NCBI GenBank assembly: GCA_044892505.1
Contig: CM097884.1
Span: 79,546,001 to 79,610,000 of the forward strand
Origin: Schmidtea nova
Taxonomy: Eukaryota
DNA: 64,000 nt
Direction: 5' to 3'
Position numbers and translations under genes: made by a program. The notes under the pieces are model-generated. The model had not been told where the DNA came from. It did not search any database and was given only the letters and a program-made list of their open reading frames with translations. Shown here in pieces: positions 13,004-36,138 of the stretch (positions are counted from its first letter, which is position 1; every line of letters begins with the position of its first letter).

Positions 13004-13419
13004 TTTAATTATGATTAATTAAAATAAATTAATTATATAATGTAATGTATAAATTATAAATATGTTGGGCCCACCAATTGGTCTAAAAAGGCAAAAATAT
13101 TGTACTAATTTAAACAATAAATACAAATAATAACCACAAAAAACATTCGAAAAACCTAAATTAAAAATTAAAATAAAATAATAAATAATAAATAATAATT
13201 ACTAAATTTCCAGCAAAGGAAGAAAATCAAATTGACACGAGAACGAGCAGTATGGGGGTCTGAAATAAGAAAATTACAAATAAAATCAAATAAAAGTACA
13301 ATTAATTGGTTAATTACTTGAAAAAATCGAGACCACCCAGCGAGAAATCTGAACCGGAAATTTAAAATGGTTTATATTAAAATAAAATAACAAAATTACT
13401 TTGATGGACGGCCTGATCC

Positions 13420-13456
13420 TGATTGGTCAATCTGACCAACTGGATCAGTATAAATA
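13420..13456 (+). promoter_or_regulatory. Putative LTR promoter (ATTGG/CCAAT-type boxes followed by TATAAATA)
   Basis: GATTGGTCAATCTGACCAACTGG, then TATAAATA at 13449-13456. Motif match only. Confidence 0.5.
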
Positions 13457-14368: not shown

Positions 14369-14869
14369 ATGAAATCAACGATACTGGATGAATTTCTAAC
14401 AACCCAACGTCGTGTGGCACGGGACGAAAATCCTCAAATCCGGACGCAACAGAAGAAATTGAAGCCGCTTCCACAGGAACTTCTCAGAACGCTAAATGCA
14501 TTGATGTATAAATGGAGACGGGAACTAGGAAAGAAATGTCCATTTTCGATTTGGGCCGGTGGATTAGATACCATCATATATCGTGGAGGCCCCGGATGGG
14601 AAATTCAGGACGAAAGAGACCGGGAGACGACAGCTCTGTTCATCATAGTGGTGACAGACAGTGAAGGAAATCCAACGACAGTGATCCATTGGGGATATGT
14701 CTCACCGCTCAAGTTGCTTCAATTCGGGTTGATTCCGAATCACCTACCGAAAACGTGCCATGGACGCCCCAAACTAAACTATTCGATGGCTCACATCCGA
14801 CGAGATCCAGTCAATCACGGATTGCATATTACCCCCGTTCACGGCCTCAAGCGAAGCGTTTTTTACTAA
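14369..14869 (+). CDS. LTR-encoded ORF-A, 166 aa, unknown function
   Basis: ATG directly after a pyrimidine-rich AG (TTTTCTCAG). GC-richer than its flanks and open in both LTRs. Confidence 0.65.
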   Translation: MKSTILDEFLTTQRRVARDENPQIRTQQKKLKPLPQELLRTLNALMYKWRRELGKKCPFSIWAGGLDTIIYRGGPGWEIQDERDRETTALFIIVVTDSEGNPTTVIHWGYVSPLKLLQFGLIPNHLPKTCHGRPKLNYSMAHIRRDPVNHGLHITPVHGLKRSVFY

Positions 14870-15052
14870 ACATTATATTCACATTTTTATGAACTAAACT
14901 ATTTCCATAAATTAAATGGTATTGATCTGTGTTTTGTTTGTTCTTAGTTAAATTTATTTCTATTTATTTAATCATATAATTTTTTACTCGACGGATAATA
15001 TTAATCATTGGTAACATAATTGCTGCATCATAAAATGGGTTTGTTATTTAGT

Positions 15053-15643
15053 ATGACGGAAACTAGCCAACAGCGGGAATTGGATAAGGCGTGGAGAATC
15101 CGCCGAGCCTTAGAAAAGGAGCTAAATCAGGAAAAAGCATTACGAGCCAAGGCAGAAGCTCAGATTCAGTATTTACGGACCAGCTGGTTCGCCCCAGCCC
15201 GTATGAAGGAGCAGATGAGTCGGACAGAAAGGGCTCAAAAGACAGCTGACGATTATCGCACCGAATGGGAGGCCACAAAAATTGAGTTGCGCCGATGTCT
15301 CCATTCGGTGACGACCTCATTTATCGAGTCCGAATTGAAAGCACAAATCCGACCCATCACCTACCAGAAATGGGTAGGAGAACAGAAAGTGGCCTGCTCG
15401 GTCAGTACGGACACCGATGGGCTCGAGGCAACCACAGTGCAGAGTCGGGTGGAAACCACCACTGTACCAAACCCCGTCGGGAAAACGACCAAGCGAAAGC
15501 GAATCGGTTCCAAGCGCCGTCGCCAAAGAAAGCTGTTTTCTCAACAGTTGCAGACACAAGTAACCACTATGGCAGAAATGTCGGAAACCGAGTGGTTAGC
15601 AGAGATGTTCCCTCCTGAAGGAATTTTCAAAGAATTTCTGTAA
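15053..15643 (+). CDS. LTR-encoded ORF-B, coiled coil plus Arg/Lys-rich motif (KRKRIGSKRRRQRK), ~196 aa
   Basis: ATG at 15053 follows TTATTTAG. Heptad-like N-terminal half, basic NLS/ARM-like segment, acidic-hydrophobic C-terminus. Open in both LTRs. Confidence 0.65.
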   Translation: MTETSQQRELDKAWRIRRALEKELNQEKALRAKAEAQIQYLRTSWFAPARMKEQMSRTERAQKTADDYRTEWEATKIELRRCLHSVTTSFIESELKAQIRPITYQKWVGEQKVACSVSTDTDGLEATTVQSRVETTTVPNPVGKTTKRKRIGSKRRRQRKLFSQQLQTQVTTMAEMSETEWLAEMFPPEGIFKEFL

Positions 15644-16129
15644 CAGATAGAATACGATGTCAGATTTTGGAGTTAATTAAATCTTTGCTCGTTTTTGTTT
15701 TTGTTGTTGTTATTTCCTAAGTATTTCCTTCGATTACCTAATTCATATAATTAAATTACCCGTCACACAACGAAAGGAGTAGCGATAAAGTACTTAAATA
15801 TTATCAAATTCGTAGTTTCGTTTTGCTTGTTTGTTTTTTTTTTTGTTTTTACGATAAATACATAACCTCACACACACAATAGAACAATAATTGCGTAAGT
15901 CCTTCTACGGCCGCGTGAACCCGTAAGCATAAAGGGGGAGTAGTCCTAGCAATAGTGCTCACCTGCCCCTCATTGCTTAACCACCCTGCGCATCACCAAC
16001 TTGGTTATCAAGGGAAATAATCAAGGGCGCTCGAGTGTAGCTTACGACTATTTATGCATGATCATGGATGGGAGATCCCTAGCAATCATTAGAATTTTTA
16101 CCAAACCGTCCATGAACCCAGCATAAATT

Positions 16130-16147
16130 TGGGGGCTCAGCCGGGAT
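16130..16147 (+). promoter_or_regulatory. Primer binding site, tRNA-Pro
   Basis: TGGGGGCTCAGCCGGGAT starts 6 nt after the LTR end and matches the known tRNA-Pro PBS TGGGGGCTCGTCCGGGAT at 16/18 positions. Confidence 0.88.
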
Positions 16148-17637: not shown

Positions 17638-17679
17638 GAGGCCAACGAGCCTTATTGAATGACCTAGCTAGGCATTATG

Positions 17680-17933: not shown

Positions 17934-18542
17934 AGTGGATTATAGAGATATCCGGATAAATAGTAACAGAGGGAATATAGACCCATAGTGTAATCGTCGA
18001 CGAGATTTAGAGTAGTGCGCACTAGTAGTTAAGAGAATGCGAGTAAGCTGATTATGCAACCTTAAGTAAAGCATGCAAGGAGAATAGAAAAAATTTGAGC
18101 TGACCGGAAAAACCGGCTGACTAGGTAAAACGATAGCTAGCAATGAGTAATGAATAGAGATGATAAAATAATGATAAACGAGTCAGAAAGACTCAGGGAA
18201 TTAGAGCGCTCGAGCGACCAATAAATTGGGAAACTGTGGGAAAAGTAATTGATTTGATAAAACATAGATAATTATTACGACCTAAATAGATAATTGTGAC
18301 CAGTCTATAGATAATTTAAATAGACTAAAAATAAAGGGGAATCTGGGAATGGGAAATAATGAAAACCCAGTAATAAGTAATCCCGAAAGAAAGGGAATAA
18401 AAGCGCGACGATAACAATAATGTATCGTTGAGGACCTTTGTATTTTAGATATACAAATCAATCAAATCAATCAATCAAGCAAGAAGAATCAGAACACGAT
18501 AAGAGATAGGACAAGAAAATTGAGTATACAAAAGTAATCCCC

Positions 18543-20426
18543 TTGAGAAAAGGAGCAAAGAGTGTAGTAGTAAAGCCAACGGAAAAGAAAGTCGGTAGCA
18601 ACATTAACAAAAAAGACAAAACTAGTACTACAACAAAATCAACAAAAAAGCAGAAAGCCGGCAAAGATAACCCACAAGGGAGTAAATCGAGGAAAATAAT
18701 AAGAGATAAATCGATTACCGAAAACGATAAATTGTCAATAGTAAGCAACAGCTCAAGTAACAAAGAAAACCAAGCCAAACCCAAGGAGAACCAAGCAAGT
18801 GAAATAGAGAGCGACGAAACTAACAACGATAATATCGAAGAAATAGAACACGAGATAGAACAAGAAGGAGAAATCGACGAAACTAACAACGATAATATCG
18901 AAGAAGTAGAAAACGAGGTAGAACCAGAGATAGAAATCAACGCGAGTGATAACGAAAGTATAATATCAGATAACGAAGGAATAAGAGAAACAGAAAGCGA
19001 TTCAAGCTCGAGTAAAACGGAAGACGAACATAACAACGAACTAGAAACAAGAGGAAACGAAAGTAAAATAACTCAAGACAGCGGAATTGAAATGGGTGAA
19101 CCAAGAGAAGAAATAAAGGATAAATTTTCAGGAGAACCGTTTAACGGAGATGCGAGTAAATTAGAAACCTTTTTAAAGGAATTTGGCATATTCGTGGAAG
19201 TATGCAAGTGGAAAGCGGAAACAACAGTAAGCAGAATTCAGTTATATTTGAAAGATAGTGCATTGGACCTATATTTGGAAGCGAAAAATGGTACCAATCC
19301 ACCTACAAGCTGGTCAGCGATCAAGGATTTTTTCCAACAAACATTTGGAATAAATAAAGTGCTAAGCGAGGCATTCATAGAATTTTCAATGAGGAAACAA
19401 AAGATGAATGAATCTAATGCGGTATACGCGAGCGAACTGAAAAAATTAGCAAAATCGGTATTCAAGGATGGGGGTTCAATAAACGAGGAATTAATGGCAG
19501 CCATCTTCATAGGAGGATTAAGAAGACCCGACATAAGAGCGCAAGTTGGATGCCAAGGATGCCAAACCATAGACCAAGCGTTAGAGACAGCTAACCGATT
19601 TGAATTGCATATGATAGGAAGTGAGGGCAGAATTTATTTAGCCATGGACAGAGCACAAACCGAACCAGAAGTAAATCTCAACAATCACATTCCAAATTCG
19701 CAACAATTAAACCGACCACCCCCTCAACGAAGGAACGAAGGAAATAAAGTGCAAAACTTTAGAAACCAAAACAATTACAATCCTCAAGGACAAACAAAAC
19801 AATGTAAAACATGTGGAAAATTGGGACATTGGCAGCAAGAATGCTATCAAAATTTGAATTGCGGAAAATGTGGAGTTAAAGGACACTCGGAGAGTAGATG
19901 TTCTACGATAATCTGTTTTAATTGCGGACGACCTGGTCACTACTCAAGGAATTGCGGACAAAAAGGTAATCAACGAGGAAATTGGCAGAACAACGGAAAC
20001 CGACCAAATTACGGAAATCAAACAAATACTGCAAATCGACAAGATTATGGAAACCAACAAGCCAATAATAACAATAATCAGAACAAAACTACCACCAAAG
20101 AAATACATTTGATGCAAGAAGTTCAAAGATTGACGGAACTTATAAACAATACGACGAGAGGGAACCCGCAAACCAATCAACAGCAAATTAGCATGATGAG
20201 AAAAATAGAAAACGAAAACGAACGATTGAATCGAGAAAGTCAAGCACGACACGCTCAGGAATGGGCAAGAATACAAAGAGAAGATGAACAAAAACAGAAA
20301 GAAAGAGAACGACAACCTCTAAGAATTAACATGATGAGAGTAACAAAGCAAACAGATAACCACGAGAAAGAAACCACACCGGAAATAAATTCGATAGACC
20401 CGAATCCAGCCGACAACGAAAGTTGA
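18543..20426 (+). CDS. gag: Gag: capsid-like domain, three CCHC zinc knuckles, Q/N-rich regions. First in-frame ATG at 19092.
   Basis: PFNGD...FL..F and Q...ES...Y...L capsid motifs. Three CX2CX4HX4C knuckles at 19803-19955. Start codon uncertain. Confidence 0.92.
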   Translation: MRKGAKSVVVKPTEKKVGSNINKKDKTSTTTKSTKKQKAGKDNPQGSKSRKIIRDKSITENDKLSIVSNSSSNKENQAKPKENQASEIESDETNNDNIEEIEHEIEQEGEIDETNNDNIEEVENEVEPEIEINASDNESIISDNEGIRETESDSSSSKTEDEHNNELETRGNESKITQDSGIEMGEPREEIKDKFSGEPFNGDASKLETFLKEFGIFVEVCKWKAETTVSRIQLYLKDSALDLYLEAKNGTNPPTSWSAIKDFFQQTFGINKVLSEAFIEFSMRKQKMNESNAVYASELKKLAKSVFKDGGSINEELMAAIFIGGLRRPDIRAQVGCQGCQTIDQALETANRFELHMIGSEGRIYLAMDRAQTEPEVNLNNHIPNSQQLNRPPPQRRNEGNKVQNFRNQNNYNPQGQTKQCKTCGKLGHWQQECYQNLNCGKCGVKGHSESRCSTIICFNCGRPGHYSRNCGQKGNQRGNWQNNGNRPNYGNQTNTANRQDYGNQQANNNNNQNKTTTKEIHLMQEVQRLTELINNTTRGNPQTNQQQISMMRKIENENERLNRESQARHAQEWARIQREDEQKQKERERQPLRINMMRVTKQTDNHEKETTPEINSIDPNPADNES

Positions 20427-20477
20427 AAAGAGTTAGTACAAAAAGATGAGGAAGTAAGAAAAGAAGCAGAAAAGGAA

Positions 20478-23400
20478 GTGGAAACTGAGATAAACCGAGG
20501 AGAGAGGAAGGAGATTTGGAAAAGAGGAATGATGGTAATCATGCCCAACAAATCCGTGTTTAGATTCCAGTATAACGTAAAAGAAGAAGTGAGAATATTA
20601 TTCAACAAAGTAAACCAGATGGTTCCAGGAGTAACGAAACTGCCCAGAGAAGCGTTCCTACAAATAGAAGGTGCGCCAAAAGTAAAGTTGGAAGTAACGG
20701 ATATATGGGAAAACATGGGAGTAGTAGAAACAAAAAGAAACGTGATGATTATTAAAGAAATAGAACCAGAAGAAATTCCACCACCAGTGCGTCACGAAAC
20801 CCGAATCAGCCGAATATTTAAAGGAAAAATGATAAGAAGACGGTTGAAAGAAATAGACGAGTTAGAGAAGAAAATGAGAAAAGTCGAAGTAATAGAGGAC
20901 AAGAGTGAACCAACACCGGAGATTGACAAAAACGAACCAGAACTAACGGAGAATATACAATGGGAAACGAACCAAATAGCACATATTAATATGTTAAGAA
21001 ATACCACCAGAGAGTTTTCCGATGAGGAAGAAGATAGTGACATCAGTAGCCTAGCAGGAGACCTATTAAACGAATCCGAAGACGAAAATAAAGAGAGAGA
21101 AGTAATAAAGACCTCAGAACCTACACAGATAAAAGTAGATGAAATCCAGAAATTACTAGATAACTCGCTAGAAGTAATATATAACGAAGAGTTCATGGAC
21201 AAGAAACAATATCGGAAATTCATGAAAGTATTATTACAAATGAACTACAAAGAATGGTTACAAGACCGGGAAGTAGACATGTTGAATCGATACGTAGGGA
21301 AATTAATAGAGGAACCACTCCTCAATTACACCATCTCAATAATAATAAACACATCTACACCAAGAATCTGGATTAAAACTCCATTTACAGACGATATCTA
21401 CAGATGGGTAGAGGACAGGCTAGGGAGCTCATATAAAAACAAATTCATTTATTCGCAGAATAGACTCGTAAAGAAAAGAACGCACTTAGTAGAAACAGGT
21501 ATATGGCCAGGAGAAATAACCCTGTTATCAATATGTGACGAAAAAGAAGAAGAGAACCTACAAGAAGTCGCTAAGGAGGCAAACACGTGCTTCGAAAGGA
21601 GAATAAAACCTCGGTTAGAATACGAGAAAGAACGAGTCTTACGAAAGAATCTAAATTCCCTGATAGAACAAATCATACCACAAGTCAAAAAACATAGAAA
21701 GGAGTTAATGAGAAGCGAATACGAGAAATTGAAACGATGTATTGAGTGCATACGTGACACAAGTCACACGAGATGGTCACAAATCTCACACGACAAATTA
21801 ATCGCAAAAATGGGAAAAACGATGTTCAGACAAGGGAAAATAACAGATCTAAAAATTTCAGTGGAACTGCCTAATGAAGACACCAAAGAAATTGAAGTAG
21901 TAGCGGATTGCACCATTAAAGAATTAATAAATGTCATCAACGAGACACTAGTGCAAAGAGAACCAGAAGACGAATGGGAAGACGACATAATCATACAATA
22001 TAACGAACATGTATTATGGGATCACGATGAGAGACGATTATATAAAATCGGTATATGGGATAATCACCAAACCATCCACGTTATCAGAATGGACGATACA
22101 CCCAGAGAAACTGCTAAAGATGAGAAAAGAGAACGGGAACGACGGAAAAAAGTTGTGCGCAAATTACAACAAATAGTAGAAATTTATCGAAATTGGCGAA
22201 CTTGGCCAGAGTGGGAAAATGTATTAGAAAAACTCAACCTCAACAGACGAATACGAACACCCGTAGAGAAACAATGGAACGAGAAAGGAAAATGTTGGGA
22301 ACCAAAAGAAGGGGAATATGAAGAAGAATATGAAAGAGAAATGGAAGATGACTGCAAACCAGAAATGGGAAGGGTTTGCATGGTGACAAGGAAAGCCACG
22401 CCAATAGACCTAGATGGACCAGAAACAGTGGCCATATGGTTAGAAAAGGAAAAGCAAAAAACGGAGGAATTTGTCGAATTATTAAAAACTAATGCGCACG
22501 GTAAGAGAAAAATAATAAAAGGTCTCGCAGATTTTTTCGTGGTTAATGGAGAAGATATAACATGCTTGCGTAAAGTGGCAAAAGCAATCGCAGAATATAA
22601 AAGAGTTAACGAGTGGTGTCCGGAACAACTAGACCACGTAATTAGGAAATGGAGAAATCAAGAATTCTCGCAAGAAATTCCACAAAAAGTACATTTAAGA
22701 ATAATATATCCAAACAAGGATAAGGAAGAGCTTTGGGTAGGAATAGCAGAAAAAATTCGAGATATTAAAAAGAAATTGAGATACGAACCACCGTTCCATT
22801 TACAACACCAAGGACGATCATTAGATAACAGTTTAGAAATTGGAATAACGCCAGCACAACTAGACCTCATGAATACCCTGACAGTGGAAGCAATAGCGGG
22901 GCAACCATTGAAACGCAAAGAAGAAAACCATAAACCACACGGAAGTATAAGTACGCCGAGCCCGATGAAATCAGTACTAACGCCAGGAACAAGTTCAAGA
23001 CGATCTGAGACAACACCCAGAGGGAATAGAGAAATGACTCCACCACAACCATATGACGTGGACGAAATATTAACAGACAGCGACGACATGATAGAAGAAC
23101 TAACCGAATTAACAGAGGAAAAAGACGACAACATTTTCGAAAGAATACAAGAACTACCTACGACAATACAAGCAACCAACCCCGGAGAAACAGAAGTCGA
23201 AGAAGAGATAATAATAGAAGAAATAAACGATTTGGCAGAAGACGAAACGAGAGGAACGAATGTCGAAAATGTACGATTAACACAAGAAATGGAAAGATGG
23301 TTGGAAGAAAGAGCTAACGAACCAAGAGATGTTACGGAAGAAACCGGACGAGCAACAAGATTTGTGGAAACGGGTACAGGAATGGATAGACGACCTCGAG

Positions 23401-26400
23401 GTAGACCCAAGACAGATCCGGCAAATGTAGTCATCAGAAATAAGGATGAAAAGAGACAAGATCAATGGGAAGTATGTTTAAAGAAATTAAATAAAATCGC
23501 GGAGATAAAAGAAAAAGAGACAACACCAATATGTCAAGGTGAGGAATGGATATCGAAAACAATAATGGAAATATTGGCAATAATTGATCCGGAATTGAAA
23601 AAATACTGGCGTATAACTGAAATAAGCGAAAAAGCAAAGTCATTGCACAGCGCAATAGCACCCATCTTACCGGAATTCATAAAAGAAAAGACGAAGTCAA
23701 ATCATTTAGACTGGCAAGGAACCACTACGCTAATAAAGAAATTGACAGAAGGAGCGGAAACAGATAACAAATACGTGATAGCCATTGCATACACCATCTA
23801 CAACCTACTAACACTGAGTAGAGGTCGACCAAAACCCACTGCGTTGGAAAGACACATAAAAAATACCGCAAAAATTATAGCCAGAGAAATAGAACCATAC
23901 ATCATTAACAAAGGAGGATGGGAAACATTTATCAAAACTAACCAGAAGAAAACGCAAGCCAAGAATATGAAAAAGAAATTCGAAAAAATATTGGAAGAGT
24001 TAGAAAAAGAACAAGCAGGAACAGGAAACGCGAAGTCATCAATGAATTTGAGTTCTATAATAATGATGATGTTGATATGGATGATTAGCACCGATAGCGC
24101 AACAGCATTCGAAGTGTTTGATTGCGACCAAATGAAGTTAGGAGAAAAGTATTCATTGAGAGGCACGGAGCAATGCAAAGATGCAACTCCAGTAGAGTTG
24201 CAAAAGATTAAAAAAGAACAATGGTACCACGTGTATCAAGAAGCAGAACTCATAAAGACAATGGTGAATGAATGTAAGGTGCAGAAGACGAGATTCGCAT
24301 TCTACTGCGGGAGAGGACATTATTCAGCAATTGTCATGCCAGGAACGGAAAGAGAACCAATCGTGTTACAAGGAGAGGACTGCGAAGCACTATTTAAACA
24401 TGGAGAAGTAACAACAAGGGATAAAATCAAGATAAGAGGAAAGCCAGGAATGATGCTGCAACAGACATACTATGTAGCAGGACGGATTACGGGAGGAGAA
24501 GGATATTGTCAAGGAGAAACCTACCCGATATTCGGAGTACCCGCAACCAACTTAGTGGTGATGGATACGTATATAGTCGAATTGAAAAGCTATGAAGCAT
24601 TCTTTGAACCAACAACGGGAGAAATGAAAACGTTATCCATGTGTAAAATCGACAGGAGCATGTGTCAAACGGGAATGTCAACATTAGTATACAAACCAAA
24701 GGTGAACGAATGTCAATTACAACTGCTACAAGGAGCAAAGTTCGACGAAATCCAAGGAAAAACATTCCAGGAAGAAGACGATGACGACAAAGCTAGAGCA
24801 AAGCATCTCAAGGAAGCTTTAGAGAATAAAAAACAATTGAAACCGGATCATAGAGAAAAACGGATAGAGATGAGAGCCACACCAACAGTATTGATAACCA
24901 CAAATCAGGATGTGGGAATGAGATTCATAAAAGGGAAAGCAACCCTTAAGTGTAGTACAACGGTATACGAAACAAATTATCCAGGAATATATGTGTCAAA
25001 ACAAGAAGTACCAAATGCGAAACCCAAAATCGACACAATGGATATCAAACTACACCTGTATGTGAATAATAAAATGGATTTCCTATTCCATAGAGGACAA
25101 GCCTCATTACAAAAAGTGTACTACGATCTGATAAACAATGATTGTATACTGAATAGAGAAATATTAAAGACAAAGTTGGCCGTAGCGATTACGAATCCAG
25201 ATAGCGCGATGCCATTATTACCACTGAGAGAAGGACATTTCGGAAGAGTGGTCGGAGAAGCAATGTACGTATACATTTGTGAAAAGACACACGCGCCGCT
25301 AGCAGCAACAACGCAGTTGAAACCTGGAACCTGTACAAATGAGTTGGAAATCGATTACAAAGGAAAAGTACGATACGTTCAACCAGTGACGAGAATCATC
25401 AATCCACCAGGGTTTGAACCAAATCCATTCAACTGTAGTAATGCGTATGGACCACTTTATCAGAAACCAGATGGTAAATGGGTTATGTTCCCAGGAAGAT
25501 CCGAAGTGATAGCACCAAGAGAATTCGAGCTAATGCAGTTGTCAAAGGATAGGCAATTCAGCGACGTAGATGTCTCAAACAACGGAATATATAGTCCAAA
25601 GGATTTAGAAGCAGCAAGGCAGAATATATTATTTCCAGCGAGAAGAGAAGCATTACTGTCAAATATCGTAACGATAACGGGAGGAACGAATTATCGAGAA
25701 GGACCAAATTATGAATTGTTGCTGTCACCAGCACATTTCAAGAAAGCCACAGAAAATATGATGAAAGCAATGTGGGGAAGATTCCTGATATTTGGACAAA
25801 TGATGGCTGGAATACTAGGGGTTATATTAATAATACAAATCGTCAGAGTGATAATAACGCAAATGCTTGCGTGTTTTGACATCTACAAGAGAGAAAAGAA
25901 AGTGAATTGGAAAATGGTAGTAGGGTTTTTACCATTCCTTGCGAAAACAATGGTGTTGCATGGACACTCAAAAGATATCCATCGAATAAAAAGACTCCTA
26001 AAGATACTAGCAAAAATGAAGGGAACAGATGAAGAAGTAGGACGAAAATTTAAAAAGATAATGAATGACGAACAAGCAAGACAACAGCTCAAGAGAGAAA
26101 GAAAAGGTTTATGGGAGAGGGTGAAAGGATATAAAACCCAAAATGATTCGAGTGACGACGATGATGACGATGACGACTATAAGGGAGGACAAGTCTATAA
26201 GAACCAAGCACCCCAATACATTGAAAAGAATCCAGCCGACGCGTGGAAATGTTACGCACCTCCACCAACCATGTATCAAGAACCACTACAAGGAGGAAGA
26301 ACGACAACAATGCAAATGATGCCAATGACAAATGTATACCCCATGATACCAGAAGATTATAAAATGAGAAGATGTAGAAGTGTAGATCCACAAGGAGACG

Positions 26401-29400
26401 CACATACAATCGCCGTAATGTCATCAAACACAGGTCCAGTACTAACCACGACAATAGAGATTAACGGAAGAGAAATCGAAGCAATGATCGACACTGGAGC
26501 AAACATTTCCGCCATCGACATCAAATGGATACCACAGGAGCAAAGACGAGAAATAGAAAGGACAAACGTCCACGTAATTGCATGTAGCAAAGAAGTTGTA
26601 GAAGTAGCAGGAAGATGGTGGGTAAAAATACGCCACTTAAACACAGAAATCGATACGTACGTAGCAGTCATACCAGCATTAAGCGTACCTTGCATTATCG
26701 GAACAGATTTGATGCCAGCATTATTTAAAGAGATTGTAATCGATCTCGGAACAATGAGACTAAAAGATCGCACAGGACAAATATGCGCAATAGAAGCCAA
26801 AGTGACAAGTTCAAAGCAAATGATAATACCCGCAAGAAAGGAGAAAATATGTTATGTAAAAATAGATCCGACAATCCAAGGGGATATGATTTTCGAACCA
26901 AGCAAAAGATTCGAGAAAAGAAAAGCATTGCCAATGGCAAGAGGACTAGTCAACATAAATGATAATGGAGAAATCCCAATAAACGTGGTAAATTTCAACG
27001 AGGAGGATAAAATAATCTACGAAAACGAAAGATTAGGTAAATTAACCCCAATGATGGATATAGAACTACCAATAGCAGGAGCAGAGAAAGATAAAGAACC
27101 AACATGGAATATTGATAGTGAATTATTAAATGAGAATCAAAAGAAGCAATTAGAAAAACTGCTGACAGAGTATAAGGACATATTTGCAACATCCGATTTG
27201 GATCTAGGAACATGTGATGTCACACTACATACAATACCATTAACGGATGAAACACCAATTGCATTAAGACCGTACAAATTAGCGGAAGCACAGAAAGCAG
27301 TAGCGGAAGCAGAAGTGAAGAAAATGTTGGATGCAGAAGTAATCGAACCAAGTTGCTCACCCTGGCAATTTCCAGTGGTAATGGTAAAGAAGAAAGACGG
27401 AACACAAAGATTCTGCATAGATTATCGAAGATTGAACACAGTGACCAAACGAGATACTTACCCATTACCGGACATCAACGAAATGTTACTAACACTACAA
27501 GGAGCAGTACATTTTACGTCGTTAGATCTGAAAAGCGGATATTGGCAAATAAAAATGAAGGAAGAAGATAAGGAGAAAACTGCCTTTACCATCGGTAGAG
27601 ACTTATACCAATTTCGGAAAATGCCATTTGGATTAACCAACGCACCAGCATCATTTCAGAGATGCATGAATTTCGTCACCCATGGAATAAAACAGTGTAT
27701 GGTCTACATAGACGACTTATTGATTTACTCTAGTACATTCGAACAACACATACAGGATATTCGAGATGTATTCGTTAGACTTAGACAGTGGAAGTTAAAA
27801 CTCAAGCCATCAAAATGCGATTGGGCAAAAGAAAAGGTTACATTTTTAGGACATATAGTGTCAGCAAAAGGAAAAGAACCGGATCCTAGAAACATCGACA
27901 AGGTAAAAGAATGTCCAGTACCAAAAACAATAACCCAGATACAAGAGTTTCTTGGATTGTGTGGATACTACAGAAAGTTTATAAAAGATTACGCCGGAAT
28001 AGCAAAACCTATACAGGAACTAGTCAAGAAAGATGTATCATTCATATGGGGAGATGAACAACAAACAGCCTTTGAAACATTGAGAGATAAACTGATAACC
28101 GCACCTATATTGGTACACCCAGACTTCAAGAAGCCATTCCTACTTGCAACGGATGCAAGCGGATATGCAGCAGGAGCAGTATTAGGACAATACGACGACG
28201 AAGGAAAAGAACGGGTAATCGGATATTATAGCCGGACATTCAAAAAGCACGAAAAAAATTACTCGGTGACAGAACGGGAAGCATTAGCAATTATACTAGC
28301 AATTAAACACTTTAAATATTTATTATGGGGACACATCATCTGCATAACAACAGATCACCAACCGCTTGTATGGTTAGGACAGCATAAGGAAACATCCAGT
28401 AGATTAATGCGATGGGCAATGCAGCTACAGGAGTACTCACCAGACATAAAATTTAAATCAGGAAGAGCGAATGCGAATGCAGATTGTATGTCAAGACTGA
28501 CATTTCCAGAACTAACCGATCCTGATGTACAACGAATTTGTGTGTTAATAGCGGAAGATTTAGATTTTAGTGAGTTAAAGAAAGATCAACAGGAAGACAA
28601 AGAATTAGGACAGATCATAGAGTTCCTAACATCTCGAAATATGGAAGTATTCAAGGATAATAAGGAATTAAAGGAACATATAGGAAAGTATCAACATCGA
28701 TATATAATAAATAAAGGATGGTTGTTAATACAAGATGGTGAAAAGAGATCGATGTGTTTACCGGAAAACAGAAGGAAAGAGATAATGATCCAATACCATG
28801 ATGGAAAATTAGGAGGACATATGTCAGAGAAAAAGACAATAAATCGTATGAGACAAAAATATTATTGGCGAACAATGGAAGAAGATATAAAAGAATGGAT
28901 TAAAAATTGTCTAACTTGCGCAACTAGAAAGGATAGTGGGAAGAAATGGAAAAACCCACTACAACCAATGCCAATACCAGCAGAACCAATGACAACTATA
29001 GCAATGGACGTAATAGGACCATTACCAGAAAGTTTAAACGGAAATATTTATATACTGGTAATAACGGATTACCTGACGAAATTCCCGGAAGCATTTGCCA
29101 TGCAAGACCAAAAAGCAAAAACCGTAGCAAAAATTCTAGTGGAAGAAATATGTTGCAGATACGGAACTCCAAAACAAATACTCACAGACCAAGGAACTAA
29201 TTTTATGAGTGAGTTATTGAACGAGGTGACAAACTATTTCAGAATAGCAAAATTGAGAACTTCACCATATCACCCACAAACGAATGGACAAACAGAGAGA
29301 TTCAATGGTACATTGATTAGAATGCTATCCAACTATGTCAGCAGACACCAAACTGATTGGGACGAATACATAAAATTATGTTTAATGGCATACCGAATGT

Positions 29401-32400
29401 CGATACATGCAGCAACAAAACTAAGCCCGTTTCAACTCATGTATGGAAGAGAATGCAACATGCCCATAGATTTAGAGTATCAGCCACCATTATCGCAATA
29501 TATGGAAGATGACGACTACGTAACCAAATTCAAAGAAAGAATGCAGGAAATATGGAAAACGGCAGAACTCAACATTAAATTTTATCAGGAAAGTTATAAG
29601 GACTTACACGACCAGAAGAAAAACGTTAAAGCGAACGACCTAAAACCAGGAGACTGGGTGATAATAGAAACTCCCGAAATAATACCAGGAACGGTTAAGA
29701 AACTCCAAAGACCTGGAAGAGGACCTTATGAAATTATATACAAAAAGGACAATAATGTCAAAGTTAAGCTAATAAATCGACCGTTAATACGACCCATATA
29801 TGTAAACACCTGCAGATGTAAGAAGGTGCCTAAAACGATAACTACAACACCAGAAAATCGAATAATAACTAGATCACAAACAGCCAGGATAAATATGCTC
29901 AGAGCTAATGCAACTGAAGACGACAAAGCAGAAATAAGGCAAAAAGAAATCAGAAATAAAGAAATCATACTGAAGGCGAGAGAGATAATGGGAAGATGGC
30001 ATGTTAGAGACGAAGCAGGCATATCAAGGGACATTAGACATATAATTAGCCGTTACGCACAAGGATTACCAACCGAACCAATTATTTCTGAATTATTGAT
30101 AAAAATCCCGGAAATACTCTTATTGAAAGATGTAGGAGGACAACCAGCCTTACACAATGCGATAGAGTGTAAAAACATTGAAAGAGCAAAAGAATTCCTA
30201 AAAATCGCAAAAGAAACAAACCAAAACTTGGACGTAGGGAATCGTGAACAAGAAACTCCATTAATGACAGCCGCAATCCACCAAGCAGATAAAGAAATGA
30301 TAGATCTATTGATAAAAGCTCATTTCAGTTGGACAGAACGAGATAGAGAAGACAAAACAGTGCTAAATCACGTAATATGGAGTTCTCACCAACCAATGCT
30401 GAAATACATAATAGCTAACTCCACTTGGGAGATAGACGAACTAGTTAAAGGAGACATTATCAAAGAGGCAATCAAAATTGGTAAATGCAACACGATCCGT
30501 AAGTTAATCAAATGGAAACGACCAGAAGATGATACATGGGTCTTAGACATAAACGAAGTGTACAGCGAAGGACAAAACGCACTGTTAAGATACCTTTTGA
30601 AATTTACTTGTGATCAGAAGACATTACTAACCTTATTAGACAGGGGAAACATAAACATCACAAAGAATGAAGAAGAACACAAATTCGATAAAGAGAAGGA
30701 GGTCTTATTCAACAAAATTAGGAAATGGTGTGCGAAACCACTTGATAAACTAATAACATACAAAGACATAAATAATTTTAACGATAAATACCAGACGATA
30801 GTAAGTGAGTACGAGGAATTAGTAAAAATCTTAAACCATCCCGAAAAATGCAAACAGGTTTTGGAGAAAAAAGAAAGAGAAAGTAACAAGAAACTCACAC
30901 CACTCTTCAAAGCAGAAGCACCATATCAAGCTAGACTAGATGCGATACAAGAAAAAGCAAAAGAATTGTTACCGGAATTCGAGAATAGTAAACATGCACT
31001 GGAAATACTCGGTGCATTAGTTGAAAAAGTACACGCATACGCAAAAGGAACATACAATGGTAACGATATAACGACTATAAAAAAGGAGATGCCAGTAACA
31101 TTTTTACTACCAAAGGACAGAATAATGCCCATACATAGAGCTCTACGAAATGGCAAAGATAAAAAAGTAATGGAAATTGCAAGAGTAATGTTAAGCTGCG
31201 GAAGCAACATGAATATGGTAGACGAGAAAGGAGATACACTCATGATATTTGCAGCAAGGGCCAAAACGAAAACAAAAGTGCTGGAAGAACTATACAAAGC
31301 AGGTGCAGGACTTACAGGAAAGACAGACAAAGATAATTCAATTCTGGATGTAGCATTACTAACACATAATTGGGAAATGGTCAACTTCATTAAAACAATC
31401 TCAAATCAGGAAGAAATAGATTACCTAACTGATACGGTCAGGAAACCCAGTGTACTAACAATGATGCATAATGTCGAACTAACAGAAGCAATACTTACGT
31501 GGATAAATCCGAATACTAACGAACCAGCATTCAGGATTAATGAGTTTACAGAACATAACCAAAATTGGTGCATAAGAAGTGCCTTAATAACGTATAAATG
31601 GCCAGAGATATTGAAGATGTTTATGGAAAGAAAGGATCTAAGGATCACAACCAGCCCGAAGGAAGAAAAGTACACAGGCAAATGGAAAGAATTGATGAAG
31701 ACATACATCAACAATTGGATCAAGGCCAAAAAGGAAATCTTGGAATATAAATCCACTAACAAAGTAATACCGGAGCAGGTAGAAACACAAGAATTTGAGG
31801 CAAGTAATCTAACGACATTAGCATATGCAAAATTGATAGAAGAAATCAATGTCGAGGACGACATTTTCGACGAGCCAGGGGGAGATGACAATACAGATAG
31901 TGACGACGATAACAACTCAGAAAATTCGAACGATCACGAACCACCCGATAAAGAGGAAAACGAGAGAAAAGACAAGAAACGAGACAAAGAAGAAAAGAAA
32001 AATGAAGACGAAAAACAAAAAGATGAAGATGGAGAACAAGGAAAAAACGACCAAGGAGATAAAAATGACACCCAAAGAACAGGTTATAAATCAACCATAA
32101 AACCATTCTTCAAACCAGAATTACTATTATTAACAGTGATTTTAACGTTAATTAACCCAAGTCAAGGAATGACATGTGAAGAAAGGGCAATAATACAAAT
32201 AAAAAACGCGAAAGGAATCGAACGAGTATGTTGGTCAAAAAAAGACAAAATCACGGAACAAAATAGCCCGATGGATTGCAGAATCTCAGAACACGAACAA
32301 GAAATCATAGAGATCAACGACCTAGATCTAAATACCTGGTACAAAATATGCACCGTTAGAAAACAAAAGCATCCAAGATCACACAACACAATCGCATGTG

Positions 32401-35400
32401 CAAAATACCAAACACCTAAAGCAGCCATGACAATACAACAGTCACCCAAAGGAGATTACATCATCGAAAAATGTGGAAGAACAGAGACACAGGGAACAGA
32501 AAACAAAAAACCCCAGGCAATAGATAAGCAAACAACACCAACTATACGAATTACAATAGAGAGGCCCGAAGCGAGAGTTGCCACAAACGAAACCGAAAGA
32601 GTGACTTACCAAATGGAAGTATTATGCTTAGCACTCATACTAATAATAATAAAACGACTAGAGGAAGGGATAGAAATCGAAACTATGACAATAACAGAAG
32701 TAGAAGATACACAGAATACTAACATAAAATGTTGGGCGAGGAATAACGAGGAAATCGGCGTAAATGAAATAAGGAAAAGTCGAAAACCAACAACGAATAA
32801 AGTAATTAAAGTATCCGAAGTAAAAGCAGATAAAACGTACAAACTATGCCTACTAGAAAAAGAGAGAAACAAGAAAGGTACCACAAAATGTAAAACATTC
32901 CAACCTGGAGAAGTAATAAAGTTCAGAAGGAGAACGAGGAAGAGAAATAAACAAATCAAGCGGAAAGTAAACATAACATTAGAAATAAAAGAGATAGAAC
33001 CAAATGTGAAAGGAGTATGCTGGAGGAAGTACGAAAAAGAAGTAAATAAAAGAACGACACCACAATGTCGAACAAACACAGGAACAACGACGATTCAAAT
33101 AAAAGGTTTAGAAAGTAAACAAACCTACGAAATATGTTTGGTAAAGAAAAATGATCAGATAACGATAAACGACCTAGAATGCGGAATATATACAACTTCA
33201 TCCGGAACAAGAACCAAAACGTTAACACGGAAAAATAAAAGGAAACAACAAAACAAAGAAAAACCGAAGTACACCACTACCTTTAAAAACAATAAACAAC
33301 CAACAAACCAAGAAGTTACGACGAAACCCGAGAGAAAAACATCAGCAACTCTAACATTATGGAAAATAGAGAATAAAACATTAGAAATATGTTGGATAAT
33401 AGTACAGAAACATATAAGAAGACAATCAAGAGAATGCAGAAAAACAAATAAAGAAATCAAGATCGAAAAACTACAATTTAATAGCGAGTATGAAGTATGC
33501 GCAATAGAAATAATGGACGCACTAGGAAACCAACAAGAAAGATGCGAAACCTACTATACACCAGCGAACGCAACATCAAAAGGAATAACAAGGAAACTCG
33601 AATTCAGGGAACTAAGCCAAACGAATGAACAAATGGACGCAGAAAAAACAATAACCGACCCTCAAGCAAAATGGACACCCGAAGAAGTTATCAAAGAAGT
33701 CAAAAGAAAGCAAGAGGAACGAGAACAATTAATGAGAAAACTAAAGGGACAATATGGAATAATGTTCAACCAAAGCGAATCTATACAAACAGACGAGAAT
33801 AAAGAAATTAAAGAACTAATCGGCTTAGGAATATTAACAGCGACCATACCAGTAATAATCGCGTTATCAGCTATATGGATACGCAAGATAAGCCCAAGAA
33901 AATCAACAACCCAATGGCTAAATATAGATAATACAAGCCATGGAGTCGAAATACTAGAAGCACGAGAAGAACCAAGATCGACCAGGAATGAGAAAGAAGC
34001 AAAAGGCGGAAAACTGGGAATGAACAACGAAGACAAAGAAATAGAAGAGATTAAAAGCAAAGAGACGAAATATGAAAGGCGAACCAGAAGCCTACCGCAG
34101 AGTTCAAAATGGTTGGGTCTAACAATAATATTGACATTAATCAATAGGGAAGAAGCAATAAACCCACAGACAGGGATAAAAGTAATAAATGTTCAGGAAG
34201 TCGAGAAAATATGTTGGTATAGAGAAGATGAACCAATTGGAGAAAATAACCCACTAAAATGCATAATCCGAAAATCCGACCAGGATATAGTACGAATAGA
34301 AGAAATGGATGGAGGGACCATGCATCGGATATGCATAATAAAAAAGGAAAAGAAGTCGGGGCTACCTAAGACAGTCGTATGTCAAAAATATGAAACACCT
34401 AGACTTGAATGGTATAGAGTAAAACCAACAAAGAAAGAAATCAAAAACACAATAGATCAACCAGCAACTCAGATAAGAAACACAACGGATAAACCAGGAG
34501 AAGGGGAGAGAAGCACCAATAACACGAGAGAAAGAATATCACCTCAACAGGAGTGCGTATGCATAGCATTAATACTAGCAATGTCCAAACGTCTCGACAG
34601 AGGAATAATAATAGAACAAATGGCCATAACAATAAGAAAAACAAGCAGCAACAAACTATGCTGGGGAACATACAACGAACCAAGGAAGGAATACCAAGTT
34701 CAGACAAGCGACGAATCACAAACAAACAAGGAAATCGAAATACAAGAAATACAAATGAATGAAGAAGGAAGTATATGTATCTGGGAGAGAGGAATCCAAG
34801 AGGGAATAGAGCATTGCAAGACATTCCAAAAAGGAGAGGTACTGAAATTCGATGAAGAAAAATTAACAAAGACAGAAAGAACTCTGACAATAACAGGACT
34901 CGATCAAACAGTTAAAGGAATATGTTGGACAAAGCATAACCCAGAAGGGGAAGAAGACAATCTAACCCACTGTAAAGAAACAGGGAATAAGGAAAAAGTC
35001 GAATTAAAGAAAATGGAAGTAAATAAGACATACGCGATATGTACCTTCACCAGAAAAGGTTCAGAAAAACCAGAATGCGGATTATATCAGATCTCAGAGA
35101 AACTTCAACAACAGATCAAACCAGGAAACGTGGAAAACCGAACAAAAGAAAATAACGTCAAACAACTACTAAACCGCCATTGGTCTACCCAAGAAGTAAT
35201 GAACAAAGTCAAGAGTCAAATACAAAAAGAGAAGAAGCCAGAGGCTCAAACCCAAAATGAGATAAAAGCGAATCAGAAGAAAATCAAAGCAACAAACCGT
35301 GGAAAAACCGTAATAGGACTAATCAGTATAGGAATATTAATAGCATATGGAATACTGACGACAAGCATAATAGTATATTGGAGATACAGAAAGAGAAACA

Positions 35401-35564
35401 AAGCGACAGCCATACAATGGCCAGATATCAAAATTATGAAACAAGGAATAGAAATACCAGAAGGGATACAAAAAGAATTTCAAAGAAGAACGAAAGGTAA
35501 AGAATTCTGGAAACAAATAGAAGATAAAGAACGATACGACAGAAGGACAATAATGAAGGTATAG
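20478..35564 (+). CDS. pol: 5028-aa polyprotein: Ubl x3 / AT-hook / Bcl-2-like / Env / PR / dUTPase-like / RT / RNase H / IN / ankyrin x2 / two FN3-like membrane proteins
   Basis: Uninterrupted 15-kb ORF in frame with gag. DTGA (26490), YIDD (27705), TDASG, HHCC, D-D-E and GPY motifs are all intact. Confidence 0.96.
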   Translation: METEINRGERKEIWKRGMMVIMPNKSVFRFQYNVKEEVRILFNKVNQMVPGVTKLPREAFLQIEGAPKVKLEVTDIWENMGVVETKRNVMIIKEIEPEEIPPPVRHETRISRIFKGKMIRRRLKEIDELEKKMRKVEVIEDKSEPTPEIDKNEPELTENIQWETNQIAHINMLRNTTREFSDEEEDSDISSLAGDLLNESEDENKEREVIKTSEPTQIKVDEIQKLLDNSLEVIYNEEFMDKKQYRKFMKVLLQMNYKEWLQDREVDMLNRYVGKLIEEPLLNYTISIIINTSTPRIWIKTPFTDDIYRWVEDRLGSSYKNKFIYSQNRLVKKRTHLVETGIWPGEITLLSICDEKEEENLQEVAKEANTCFERRIKPRLEYEKERVLRKNLNSLIEQIIPQVKKHRKELMRSEYEKLKRCIECIRDTSHTRWSQISHDKLIAKMGKTMFRQGKITDLKISVELPNEDTKEIEVVADCTIKELINVINETLVQREPEDEWEDDIIIQYNEHVLWDHDERRLYKIGIWDNHQTIHVIRMDDTPRETAKDEKRERERRKKVVRKLQQIVEIYRNWRTWPEWENVLEKLNLNRRIRTPVEKQWNEKGKCWEPKEGEYEEEYEREMEDDCKPEMGRVCMVTRKATPIDLDGPETVAIWLEKEKQKTEEFVELLKTNAHGKRKIIKGLADFFVVNGEDITCLRKVAKAIAEYKRVNEWCPEQLDHVIRKWRNQEFSQEIPQKVHLRIIYPNKDKEELWVGIAEKIRDIKKKLRYEPPFHLQHQGRSLDNSLEIGITPAQLDLMNTLTVEAIAGQPLKRKEENHKPHGSISTPSPMKSVLTPGTSSRRSETTPRGNREMTPPQPYDVDEILTDSDDMIEELTELTEEKDDNIFERIQELPTTIQATNPGETEVEEEIIIEEINDLAEDETRGTNVENVRLTQEMERWLEERANEPRDVTEETGRATRFVETGTGMDRRPRGRPKTDPANVVIRNKDEKRQDQWEVCLKKLNKIAEIKEKETTPICQGEEWISKTIMEILAIIDPELKKYWRITEISEKAKSLHSAIAPILPEFIKEKTKSNHLDWQGTTTLIKKLTEGAETDNKYVIAIAYTIYNLLTLSRGRPKPTALERHIKNTAKIIAREIEPYIINKGGWETFIKTNQKKTQAKNMKKKFEKILEELEKEQAGTGNAKSSMNLSSIIMMMLIWMISTDSATAFEVFDCDQMKLGEKYSLRGTEQCKDATPVELQKIKKEQWYHVYQEAELIKTMVNECKVQKTRFAFYCGRGHYSAIVMPGTEREPIVLQGEDCEALFKHGEVTTRDKIKIRGKPGMMLQQTYYVAGRITGGEGYCQGETYPIFGVPATNLVVMDTYIVELKSYEAFFEPTTGEMKTLSMCKIDRSMCQTGMSTLVYKPKVNECQLQLLQGAKFDEIQGKTFQEEDDDDKARAKHLKEALENKKQLKPDHREKRIEMRATPTVLITTNQDVGMRFIKGKATLKCSTTVYETNYPGIYVSKQEVPNAKPKIDTMDIKLHLYVNNKMDFLFHRGQASLQKVYYDLINNDCILNREILKTKLAVAITNPDSAMPLLPLREGHFGRVVGEAMYVYICEKTHAPLAATTQLKPGTCTNELEIDYKGKVRYVQPVTRIINPPGFEPNPFNCSNAYGPLYQKPDGKWVMFPGRSEVIAPREFELMQLSKDRQFSDVDVSNNGIYSPKDLEAARQNILFPARREALLSNIVTITGGTNYREGPNYELLLSPAHFKKATENMMKAMWGRFLIFGQMMAGILGVILIIQIVRVIITQMLACFDIYKREKKVNWKMVVGFLPFLAKTMVLHGHSKDIHRIKRLLKILAKMKGTDEEVGRKFKKIMNDEQARQQLKRERKGLWERVKGYKTQNDSSDDDDDDDDYKGGQVYKNQAPQYIEKNPADAWKCYAPPPTMYQEPLQGGRTTTMQMMPMTNVYPMIPEDYKMRRCRSVDPQGDAHTIAVMSSNTGPVLTTTIEINGREIEAMIDTGANISAIDIKWIPQEQRREIERTNVHVIACSKEVVEVAGRWWVKIRHLNTEIDTYVAVIPALSVPCIIGTDLMPALFKEIVIDLGTMRLKDRTGQICAIEAKVTSSKQMIIPARKEKICYVKIDPTIQGDMIFEPSKRFEKRKALPMARGLVNINDNGEIPINVVNFNEEDKIIYENERLGKLTPMMDIELPIAGAEKDKEPTWNIDSELLNENQKKQLEKLLTEYKDIFATSDLDLGTCDVTLHTIPLTDETPIALRPYKLAEAQKAVAEAEVKKMLDAEVIEPSCSPWQFPVVMVKKKDGTQRFCIDYRRLNTVTKRDTYPLPDINEMLLTLQGAVHFTSLDLKSGYWQIKMKEEDKEKTAFTIGRDLYQFRKMPFGLTNAPASFQRCMNFVTHGIKQCMVYIDDLLIYSSTFEQHIQDIRDVFVRLRQWKLKLKPSKCDWAKEKVTFLGHIVSAKGKEPDPRNIDKVKECPVPKTITQIQEFLGLCGYYRKFIKDYAGIAKPIQELVKKDVSFIWGDEQQTAFETLRDKLITAPILVHPDFKKPFLLATDASGYAAGAVLGQYDDEGKERVIGYYSRTFKKHEKNYSVTEREALAIILAIKHFKYLLWGHIICITTDHQPLVWLGQHKETSSRLMRWAMQLQEYSPDIKFKSGRANANADCMSRLTFPELTDPDVQRICVLIAEDLDFSELKKDQQEDKELGQIIEFLTSRNMEVFKDNKELKEHIGKYQHRYIINKGWLLIQDGEKRSMCLPENRRKEIMIQYHDGKLGGHMSEKKTINRMRQKYYWRTMEEDIKEWIKNCLTCATRKDSGKKWKNPLQPMPIPAEPMTTIAMDVIGPLPESLNGNIYILVITDYLTKFPEAFAMQDQKAKTVAKILVEEICCRYGTPKQILTDQGTNFMSELLNEVTNYFRIAKLRTSPYHPQTNGQTERFNGTLIRMLSNYVSRHQTDWDEYIKLCLMAYRMSIHAATKLSPFQLMYGRECNMPIDLEYQPPLSQYMEDDDYVTKFKERMQEIWKTAELNIKFYQESYKDLHDQKKNVKANDLKPGDWVIIETPEIIPGTVKKLQRPGRGPYEIIYKKDNNVKVKLINRPLIRPIYVNTCRCKKVPKTITTTPENRIITRSQTARINMLRANATEDDKAEIRQKEIRNKEIILKAREIMGRWHVRDEAGISRDIRHIISRYAQGLPTEPIISELLIKIPEILLLKDVGGQPALHNAIECKNIERAKEFLKIAKETNQNLDVGNREQETPLMTAAIHQADKEMIDLLIKAHFSWTERDREDKTVLNHVIWSSHQPMLKYIIANSTWEIDELVKGDIIKEAIKIGKCNTIRKLIKWKRPEDDTWVLDINEVYSEGQNALLRYLLKFTCDQKTLLTLLDRGNINITKNEEEHKFDKEKEVLFNKIRKWCAKPLDKLITYKDINNFNDKYQTIVSEYEELVKILNHPEKCKQVLEKKERESNKKLTPLFKAEAPYQARLDAIQEKAKELLPEFENSKHALEILGALVEKVHAYAKGTYNGNDITTIKKEMPVTFLLPKDRIMPIHRALRNGKDKKVMEIARVMLSCGSNMNMVDEKGDTLMIFAARAKTKTKVLEELYKAGAGLTGKTDKDNSILDVALLTHNWEMVNFIKTISNQEEIDYLTDTVRKPSVLTMMHNVELTEAILTWINPNTNEPAFRINEFTEHNQNWCIRSALITYKWPEILKMFMERKDLRITTSPKEEKYTGKWKELMKTYINNWIKAKKEILEYKSTNKVIPEQVETQEFEASNLTTLAYAKLIEEINVEDDIFDEPGGDDNTDSDDDNNSENSNDHEPPDKEENERKDKKRDKEEKKNEDEKQKDEDGEQGKNDQGDKNDTQRTGYKSTIKPFFKPELLLLTVILTLINPSQGMTCEERAIIQIKNAKGIERVCWSKKDKITEQNSPMDCRISEHEQEIIEINDLDLNTWYKICTVRKQKHPRSHNTIACAKYQTPKAAMTIQQSPKGDYIIEKCGRTETQGTENKKPQAIDKQTTPTIRITIERPEARVATNETERVTYQMEVLCLALILIIIKRLEEGIEIETMTITEVEDTQNTNIKCWARNNEEIGVNEIRKSRKPTTNKVIKVSEVKADKTYKLCLLEKERNKKGTTKCKTFQPGEVIKFRRRTRKRNKQIKRKVNITLEIKEIEPNVKGVCWRKYEKEVNKRTTPQCRTNTGTTTIQIKGLESKQTYEICLVKKNDQITINDLECGIYTTSSGTRTKTLTRKNKRKQQNKEKPKYTTTFKNNKQPTNQEVTTKPERKTSATLTLWKIENKTLEICWIIVQKHIRRQSRECRKTNKEIKIEKLQFNSEYEVCAIEIMDALGNQQERCETYYTPANATSKGITRKLEFRELSQTNEQMDAEKTITDPQAKWTPEEVIKEVKRKQEEREQLMRKLKGQYGIMFNQSESIQTDENKEIKELIGLGILTATIPVIIALSAIWIRKISPRKSTTQWLNIDNTSHGVEILEAREEPRSTRNEKEAKGGKLGMNNEDKEIEEIKSKETKYERRTRSLPQSSKWLGLTIILTLINREEAINPQTGIKVINVQEVEKICWYREDEPIGENNPLKCIIRKSDQDIVRIEEMDGGTMHRICIIKKEKKSGLPKTVVCQKYETPRLEWYRVKPTKKEIKNTIDQPATQIRNTTDKPGEGERSTNNTRERISPQQECVCIALILAMSKRLDRGIIIEQMAITIRKTSSNKLCWGTYNEPRKEYQVQTSDESQTNKEIEIQEIQMNEEGSICIWERGIQEGIEHCKTFQKGEVLKFDEEKLTKTERTLTITGLDQTVKGICWTKHNPEGEEDNLTHCKETGNKEKVELKKMEVNKTYAICTFTRKGSEKPECGLYQISEKLQQQIKPGNVENRTKENNVKQLLNRHWSTQEVMNKVKSQIQKEKKPEAQTQNEIKANQKKIKATNRGKTVIGLISIGILIAYGILTTSIIVYWRYRKRNKATAIQWPDIKIMKQGIEIPEGIQKEFQRRTKGKEFWKQIEDKERYDRRTIMKV
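21330..22890 (+). other. Three ubiquitin-like (beta-grasp) domains in the polyprotein (~21330-21535, 21849-22090, 22689-22890)
   Basis: Second copy LKISVELPNEDTKEIEV...TIKEL...IQYNEHVL..ERRLYKIGI....TIHVI follows the ubiquitin pattern. The other two are weaker. No terminal GG. Confidence 0.55.
23540..23940 (+). other. Bcl-2-like domain in the polyprotein
   Basis: BH2-like IEPYIINKGGWETFIK (compare WIxxxGGWxxF), preceded by helical segments. The BH1 position lacks the canonical NWGR. Confidence 0.6.
24048..25970 (+). other. env: Envelope glycoprotein domain, chuvirus G-like: signal 24048-24107, ectodomain from 24108, TM ~25782-25856
   Basis: Signal-like SIIMMMLIWMISTDSATA, then FEVFDC...SL....C...Q...V.EC.......CG..H.S.....C....G. 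About 560 aa of Cys-rich ectodomain and a TM helix. Confidence 0.8.
26430..26780 (+). other. Aspartic protease domain
   Basis: AMIDTGANIS and CIIGTDLM. Confidence 0.93.
26795..27055 (+). other. Degenerate dUTPase-like beta domain between PR and RT
   Basis: IPAR......V...ARGLV.....IPINVVN......I....RLG pattern. Catalytic motifs not evident. Confidence 0.55.
27130..28500 (+). other. Reverse transcriptase and RNase H
   Basis: RFCIDYRRLN, LDLKSGYWQI, MPFGLTNAP, YIDD, FLGH, TDASG, EREALAI, TDHQPL and NADCMSR. Confidence 0.97.
28530..29880 (+). other. Integrase (HHCC, DDE, GPY/F)
   Basis: H...GGH...CLTC, MDVIGP, TDQG, YHPQTNGQTERFN and GPYEI. Confidence 0.96.
30050..31650 (+). other. Two blocks of ankyrin repeats in the polyprotein
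   Basis: GQPALHNAI, ETPLMTAA, KTVLNHVI and QNALL, then MPIHRAL, GDTLMIFAA and NSILDVAL, at ~33-35-aa spacing. Confidence 0.85.
32121..35564 (+). other. Two tandem paralogous type-I membrane protein units with Cys-containing FN3-like repeats (4 + 3 modules)
   Basis: Signals at 32121-32168 and 34110-34157, TMs at 33816-33881 and 35310-35381. Repeated module CW...C...I..L....Y.IC...C..Y.T. Confidence 0.7.
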
Positions 35565-36046: not shown

Positions 36047-36138
36047 ATAAATAAAGCGAAAAACTGTAAATATGTAAAAATAAAAACAAGAAAAATCAAA
36101 AATAAATGACAAGTCGAATGTATATATTATTGTAGAAA

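Follow-up and report, generated by a model that had tools for sequence, protein, structure and literature searches.

Among described systems, the closest to the locus studied here are the planarian gypsy-like elements Burro and GYPSM1. According to the part of their description drawn on here (PMC6431247), these are about 30 kb long, carry multi-kb LTRs and encode one huge polyprotein in the order UBL/SUMO-like, BCL2-like, Env, PR, RT, RH and IN, together with ankyrins and MATH/TRAF, and their Env is of mononegaviral type and lies between gag and pol. The same sections place a BCL2-like motif between the SUMO-like domain and Env in Burro-2, -3 and -4, and a BCL2-like domain before env in Burro-type elements is already in print; the account of Burro in those sections mentions no signal peptide, anchor or loss of BH1. 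An anti-apoptotic cargo of the same element class is the B-IAP of Burro1 (Lee et al. 2026, as cited in the relevant section of PMC13465017), which has been functionally tested and is reported to protect stem cells. It is, however, a RING/BIR inhibitor acting at the level of caspases and not a Bcl-2 fold. For an envelope signal peptide kept on an upstream protein, a precedent is provided by the rubella virus capsid, on which the E2 signal peptide stays, giving membrane and mitochondrial association, and is required for mitochondrial targeting (PMC3040668, in part). The rubella capsid is likewise anti-apoptotic, but it is no Bcl-2 homologue, and its retained peptide is not needed for blocking apoptosis in the same portion of that study. 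The reading of an Env signal peptide retained as a Bcl-2 anchor was not found in the literature searched; Grohme 2018, Lee 2026 and supplements may contain it.

We analysed a window of 64,000 nucleotides of Schmidtea nova DNA, the whole stretch presented above, which contains a young Burro-type gypsy element of about 29.5 kb with env between gag and pol. Its main features are the following.

13063..16123, forward strand: 5' LTR (TG...CA), 99.7% identical to the 3' LTR
16130..16147, forward strand: primer-binding-site-like 18-mer, just inside the 5' LTR
18510..20426, forward strand: Gag frame with CCHC knuckles, ending at an in-frame TGA
20427..35564, forward strand: frame of 5,045 codons with accessory region, Bcl-2-like domain, Env, PR, RT, RNase H, integrase, ankyrin repeats and C-terminal membrane modules
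36136..37515, forward strand: accessory TRAF-like gene (RING, zf-TRAF, MATH), 3' of the polyprotein frame
39548..42605, forward strand: 3' LTR, 99.7% identical to the 5' LTR

The four bases AATA flank both outer LTR ends and are likely a target-site duplication, and the 18-mer presumably resembles a tRNA-Pro site. A giant LTR element, an env in frame between gag and pol and the order UBL-BCL2-Env agree with the Burro type in a comparison made by description only; the element differs from Burro in having TRAF downstream of the polyprotein, and its scanned frames gave no BIR domain. When we scored 150 of 1,244 candidate places in the same genome for copies of the Bcl-2-like domain, all 150 matched at 94-100%. 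The in-frame TGA of the Gag frame directly precedes the 5,045-codon frame in the window copy; since by our count about 35 of the 150 scored copies have open frames of more than 5,600 codons, Gag is normally part of the polyprotein. A sister subfamily (L113), with 86% identity across the domain, shows numerous open frames of 5,140 codons. This equals the length of a Burro-like ORF1 given in the pertinent section of PMC6431247, the match being one of length alone.

Each LTR holds two open frames of 175 and 207 codons with no Pfam match (14342-14869 and 15020-15643, recurring in the 3' LTR at 40827-41354 and 41505-42128), and the leader 5' of gag (17396-17964) carries tandem arrays with 29- and 32-nt units. 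The accessory frames before the 3' LTR (36136-39329) comprise the TRAF-like gene, a coiled-coil frame with weak likeness to intermediate filaments (E 0.001) and a frame with one hydrophobic stretch. After the ankyrins, positions 32097-35400 encode a further four short signal-like stretches along with two genuine membrane helices, arranged as two similar Cys-bearing modules with no Pfam match; two of the signal-like stretches are consecutive, no membrane helix separating them, which is a topological puzzle.

The preliminary description had reported, at the end of a helical region upstream of Env, a BH2-like motif and had read the region as a Bcl-2-like domain of the viral type, in which BH1 is often divergent. 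The motif is found as described.

23490..23945, forward strand: Bcl-2-like helical domain, N-terminal border uncertain
23757..23774, forward strand: BH1-equivalent ETDNKY, in which NWGR reads TDNK
23898..23930, forward strand: BH2-like motif YIINKGGWETF, aa 1158-1168 of the 5,045-codon frame

Single-sequence comparison gave low scores, with Pfam Bcl-2 (PF00452) matching at E 0.085 and 13.9 bits against a cut-off of 31.4 and Bcl-xL appearing at E 1.2 in a search of PDB. These nonsignificant scores and a search of the Atlas with the domain, which gave no usable match, are what one would expect if the BH2-like word were a chance match in a helical region. We consider that hardly credible, as it is largely refuted by profile searches, a shuffle control and conservation across lineages. 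A profile of 10 host-like Bcl-2 pieces, recognised by short frames and position without annotation, assigned 21.3 bits to the domain, whereas no shuffle exceeded 12.7 (2,000 shuffles, 1,996 of them scored), and its best match in the whole 5,045-aa frame was aa 1063-1167 (E 3.4e-5). An element-only profile (12 rows) matched Bcl-xL at E 5.3e-8 and Bax at 9e-6, and all 60 matches listed, out of 147, belong to the Bcl-2 family. Bcl-xL was again ranked first by a control profile made from three families not found via Bcl-2 (E 0.0011), while profile-profile comparison with the host-like pieces reached a probability of 95.8% (E 8e-9, 64 columns) and PF00452 matched 11 of the 12 rows at E <= 0.1, the sister families reaching the Pfam cut-off. 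Homology was detected solely at 23727-23921 (helices 4-8, BH1-BH2), and neither the element-only profile nor profile-profile comparison detected any to Bcl-2 in helices 1-3. A search of a representative library returned one 106-aa fragment (E 4.8e-4), and no relatives were found in the large protein database searched for the domain. These profiles show the domain to be a genuine, though divergent, homologue of Bcl-2, as had been proposed.

The GGW of BH2 is invariant in the 28 of 28 aligned rows, and the pattern W/Y-I-x-x-x-G-G-W is present, with Tyr for the first Trp in the window family. BH1 is indeed divergent: the NWGR of canonical pro-survival Bcl-2 is replaced by TDNK in the window, with Lys at the Arg position, and across the rows Trp and Gly are lost in 9/9 and the Arg position is basic (Lys/Arg) in 6/9. 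Cellular Bcl-xL, Mcl-1 and Bak and the herpes- and poxviral vBcl-2s share with the window domain a BH1-BH2 core with GGW and a hydrophobic stretch C-terminal to BH2; in contrast to them, the window domain has lost NWGR and is embedded in a polyprotein, and its anchor would be a co-translational signal peptide and not a post-translational tail anchor. An unrooted tree with long branches separates the element domains from the host-like pieces by a single branch (support 95/92), as would be expected for one capture. Several of the host-like pieces (L031-L039, L050; n=10) also have a divergent BH1, and most of their frames stop shortly after GGW, as at an intron. An NWDR at BH1 in a single element copy (L041) was rejected as a family trait because the other aligned copies of that family read NRDR.

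AlphaFold models of the region were all-helical and of low confidence, with pLDDT 42.7 from the single sequence and pLDDT 45.0 and pTM 0.34 from the 28-row alignment; as the latter model began at aa 1026, it may lack a first helix. In a Foldseek search with a low-confidence model, 42 of the 45 rows listed were Bcl-2-family by title (best E 0.23, in a score that includes sequence). With VIA-align, BAK, Bcl-2 and Bcl-xL scored Z 7.0-7.6 across 110-130 residues, level with helical proteins that are unrelated, in a superposition whose register agrees with that of the sequence alignment. On the test that the preliminary description had set, these models therefore neither establish a Bcl-2 helical bundle nor speak against one. 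No match in the viral structure library reached significance (best E 0.17, with vBcl-2 ranked 10), and a complex prediction of the domain with a host Bak-like BH3 stretch scored 0.05 with the alignment unused and carries no evidential weight. The presence of BAK in the top group of structural matches (Z 7.0 over 112 residues, rmsd 4.1, a score that is not significant) and the membrane-proximal position of the domain beside a fusogen could point to a Bax/Bak-like module that permeabilises or remodels membranes and aids particle exit from a compartment or the cell; such a module seems improbable, given that the sequence profile is nearer Bcl-xL (E 5e-8) than Bax and that the structural scores are not significant.

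Downstream of the Bcl-2-like domain, the polyprotein frame continues into Env.

23931..24041, forward strand: charged linker of about 37 aa
24042..24107, forward strand: predicted internal signal peptide of Env, ending A-T-A, which would stay on the upstream product
24108..26400, forward strand: Env, a chuvirus-like/Monjiviricetes fusion glycoprotein (Pfam PF24664, E 2.4e-71)

The apolar run LSSIIMMMLIWMIST (aa 1208-1222) starts about 40 residues past BH2, where the preliminary description had seen it, and is followed by DSATA|FEVFDC and then by Env, whose membrane helix lies at about 25800-25856. In cellular Bcl-2 proteins the distance from BH2 to the hydrophobic stretch is shorter. The stretch had been taken for a membrane anchor that doubles as the Env signal peptide, and the second half of that claim fits the data well. 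Because the PF24664 profile begins on the stretch (profile position 3-5) in 5/5 families, it is by homology Env's own signal peptide; an h-region stands at the N-terminus of the glycoprotein, with small residues at -3/-1 of the predicted cut in 9/9 rows, the cut position having been picked by us from the alignment. The anchor half fares less well. In the window its best 19-residue hydropathy is 1.37, whereas the polyprotein's three true membrane helices reach 2.28-2.55 and the stretch in the sister families 1.5-2.45, and the apolar run counts 15 residues in the window and 10-17 across rows. The stretch has an Asp five residues from its end in the window, lacks a basic tail and a conserved basic C-terminal flank, and varies between families. 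In the window family it would make a poor, weak tail anchor.

Signal-peptidase cleavage necessarily leaves an internal signal peptide on the upstream chain. The stretch could nevertheless be a signal peptide only, one that briefly tethers a Gag-bearing precursor beside Env or is removed by intramembrane cleavage, as in the processing of the hepacivirus core, in which case the domain would be a matrix-like assembly adaptor with no part in cell death. We find this rather unlikely, weighing the homology of the stretch to the signal with which separately encoded viral glycoproteins begin, its shortness and weak hydrophobicity, the need for an internal signal wherever env follows gag in frame and the later signal-like stretches that have no preceding Bcl-2 against the invariance of BH2 and, as a suggestion only, a decayed env- and pol-less lineage that kept Bcl-2 and signal in frame with a membrane helix.

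Searches of the same genome with PF00452, PF24664 and single proteins brought to light five more lineages, along with three closely related sister subfamilies. Two of the lineages were discovered through the Bcl-2 profile, one through those two and two through Env alone, so that three are selected for Bcl-2, having been found directly or indirectly via its profile. In the alignments, which left out duplicates and rows with stops, the order Bcl-2, linker, hydrophobic stretch and [YF]DC Env start is kept in six lineages, and the domains of the other lineages are only 16-25% identical to that of the window. Of the homology and this conserved order we are nearly certain. Between the window and a sister family, dN/dS was 0.04 in both halves of the domain, indicating purifying selection; the acidic linker gave 0.11 and RT 0.01, and the signal stretch had dN 0.058 with synonymous sites saturated; as the whole polyprotein is under purifying selection, the Bcl-2 domain is not singled out. 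In two further pairs of families the domain has diverged more than Env (identity of 58% versus 89% and 55% versus 82%). On these comparisons the domain is a constrained yet fast-drifting part of the polyprotein.

Signal-peptidase cleavage had been expected to leave a tail-anchored viral-type Bcl-2. The stretch would indeed remain on the Bcl-2 side, but the compact product finds little favour when the upstream region is considered.

22368..22391, forward strand: last protease-like word (RVCMV) before the Bcl-2 domain, a putative cut site
22683..22904, forward strand: ubiquitin-like domain, whose family profile matches ISG15 (E 7.6e-6)
23388..23411, forward strand: RRPRGRPK word, after the acidic linker

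By the Pfam spans, a protease-like word, [IV][NCAH][MVAL][MLIV], sits at the edges of PR, at those of RNase H/integrase and where integrase ends, and it also occurs away from any border; none was found between aa 650 and aa 1995 of the polyprotein frame. Because the last such word upstream lies at aa ~650, a product of ~575 aa, or the whole Gag-bearing precursor, is more likely than a compact vBcl-2. From the sequence, the product is likely aa ~652-1227 and would consist of a helical part, the ubiquitin-like domain, the acidic linker, the RGRPK word, the Bcl-2 domain and the signal peptide. A small tail-anchored vBcl-2 is less likely than this larger product, anchored at the ER first. A separately initiated small vBcl-2 is without support, as a search by one simple pattern in the sequence immediately 5' of the domain turned up no Met accompanied by a splice-acceptor-like site. 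The RRPRGRPK word is one that we take to be AT-hook-like, and an RGRP(R/K) word stands ahead of the Bcl-2 domain in two of the lineages (window 23388-23411; L043), none having been seen in the other four.

We propose that a diverged Bcl-2 domain stands before the Env signal and that the retained peptide tethers the ~575-residue UBL/acidic/Bcl-2 product, which would most likely damp host cell death; we put the probability of this reading at roughly 0.45. Its steps differ in strength. Cleavage by signal peptidase at the predicted site, ATA|FEV, is highly probable, and the element's own protease would probably release the upstream product from Gag near aa 650. That the retained signal peptide then gives lasting anchorage, at the ER first, has slightly better than even odds; such anchoring is plausible by analogy with rubella, which offers a precedent. 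Anti-apoptotic action, which would have to proceed through a non-canonical groove, falls a little short of even odds, and it is weakened because BH1 Gly and Arg matter for BH3 binding (PMC9027176, in part) and the Gly is lost in all nine rows.

The loss of the groove motif in all rows, the TRAF and ankyrin cargo of the same element and the UBL in the same predicted product could also suit a Bcl-2-fold scaffold that acts against innate-immune or stress signalling alongside the TRAF, ankyrin and ubiquitin-like cargo, in the manner of the poxviral inhibitors of NF-kB and IRF3 that have a Bcl-2 fold. We regard a scaffold of this kind as unlikely, since the BH1 region and BH2 are still recognisably cellular and since vBcl-2s without BH motifs (F1L, DPV022) still bind pro-apoptotic proteins, according to the section of PMC11209288 used.

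If the tethered product does damp cell death, a retroelement-encoded vBcl-2 would form a second anti-apoptotic arm beside the Burro1 IAP. With an anchored, working Bcl-2, envelope synthesis would be coupled one-to-one to a cell-death suppressor, and this coupling would bear on the persistence of giant elements in regenerating stem cells. Doubtful, by comparison, is the broader generalisation that Burro elements reuse the Env signal peptide as the anchor of a viral-type Bcl-2, with one death suppressor made per Env, and that the env-less lineage represents the module selected independently.

That decayed lineage (L126-L140, e.g. L105:1223-1702) is without env and pol and keeps the Bcl-2 domain and signal stretch. 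At the junction the signal stretch runs up to its predicted cut and then passes directly into the C-terminal end of a sister family's polyprotein, of which the last ~20 residues, the membrane helix and the basic tail are present. Of the 40 places scored, 15 span this junction (two look like duplicates); about 6 kb comprising env and pol is absent there, and most copies keep the join in frame. Identity of the env-less copies to the query copy is 80-92%, and stops or frameshifts interrupt the translated stretch in most of them. Such a lineage is consistent with the anchored module having a function independent of Env but is only suggestive, because a non-autonomous element needs no protein. In most copies, the new loop of ~20 residues at the junction starts with an N-x-T sequon.
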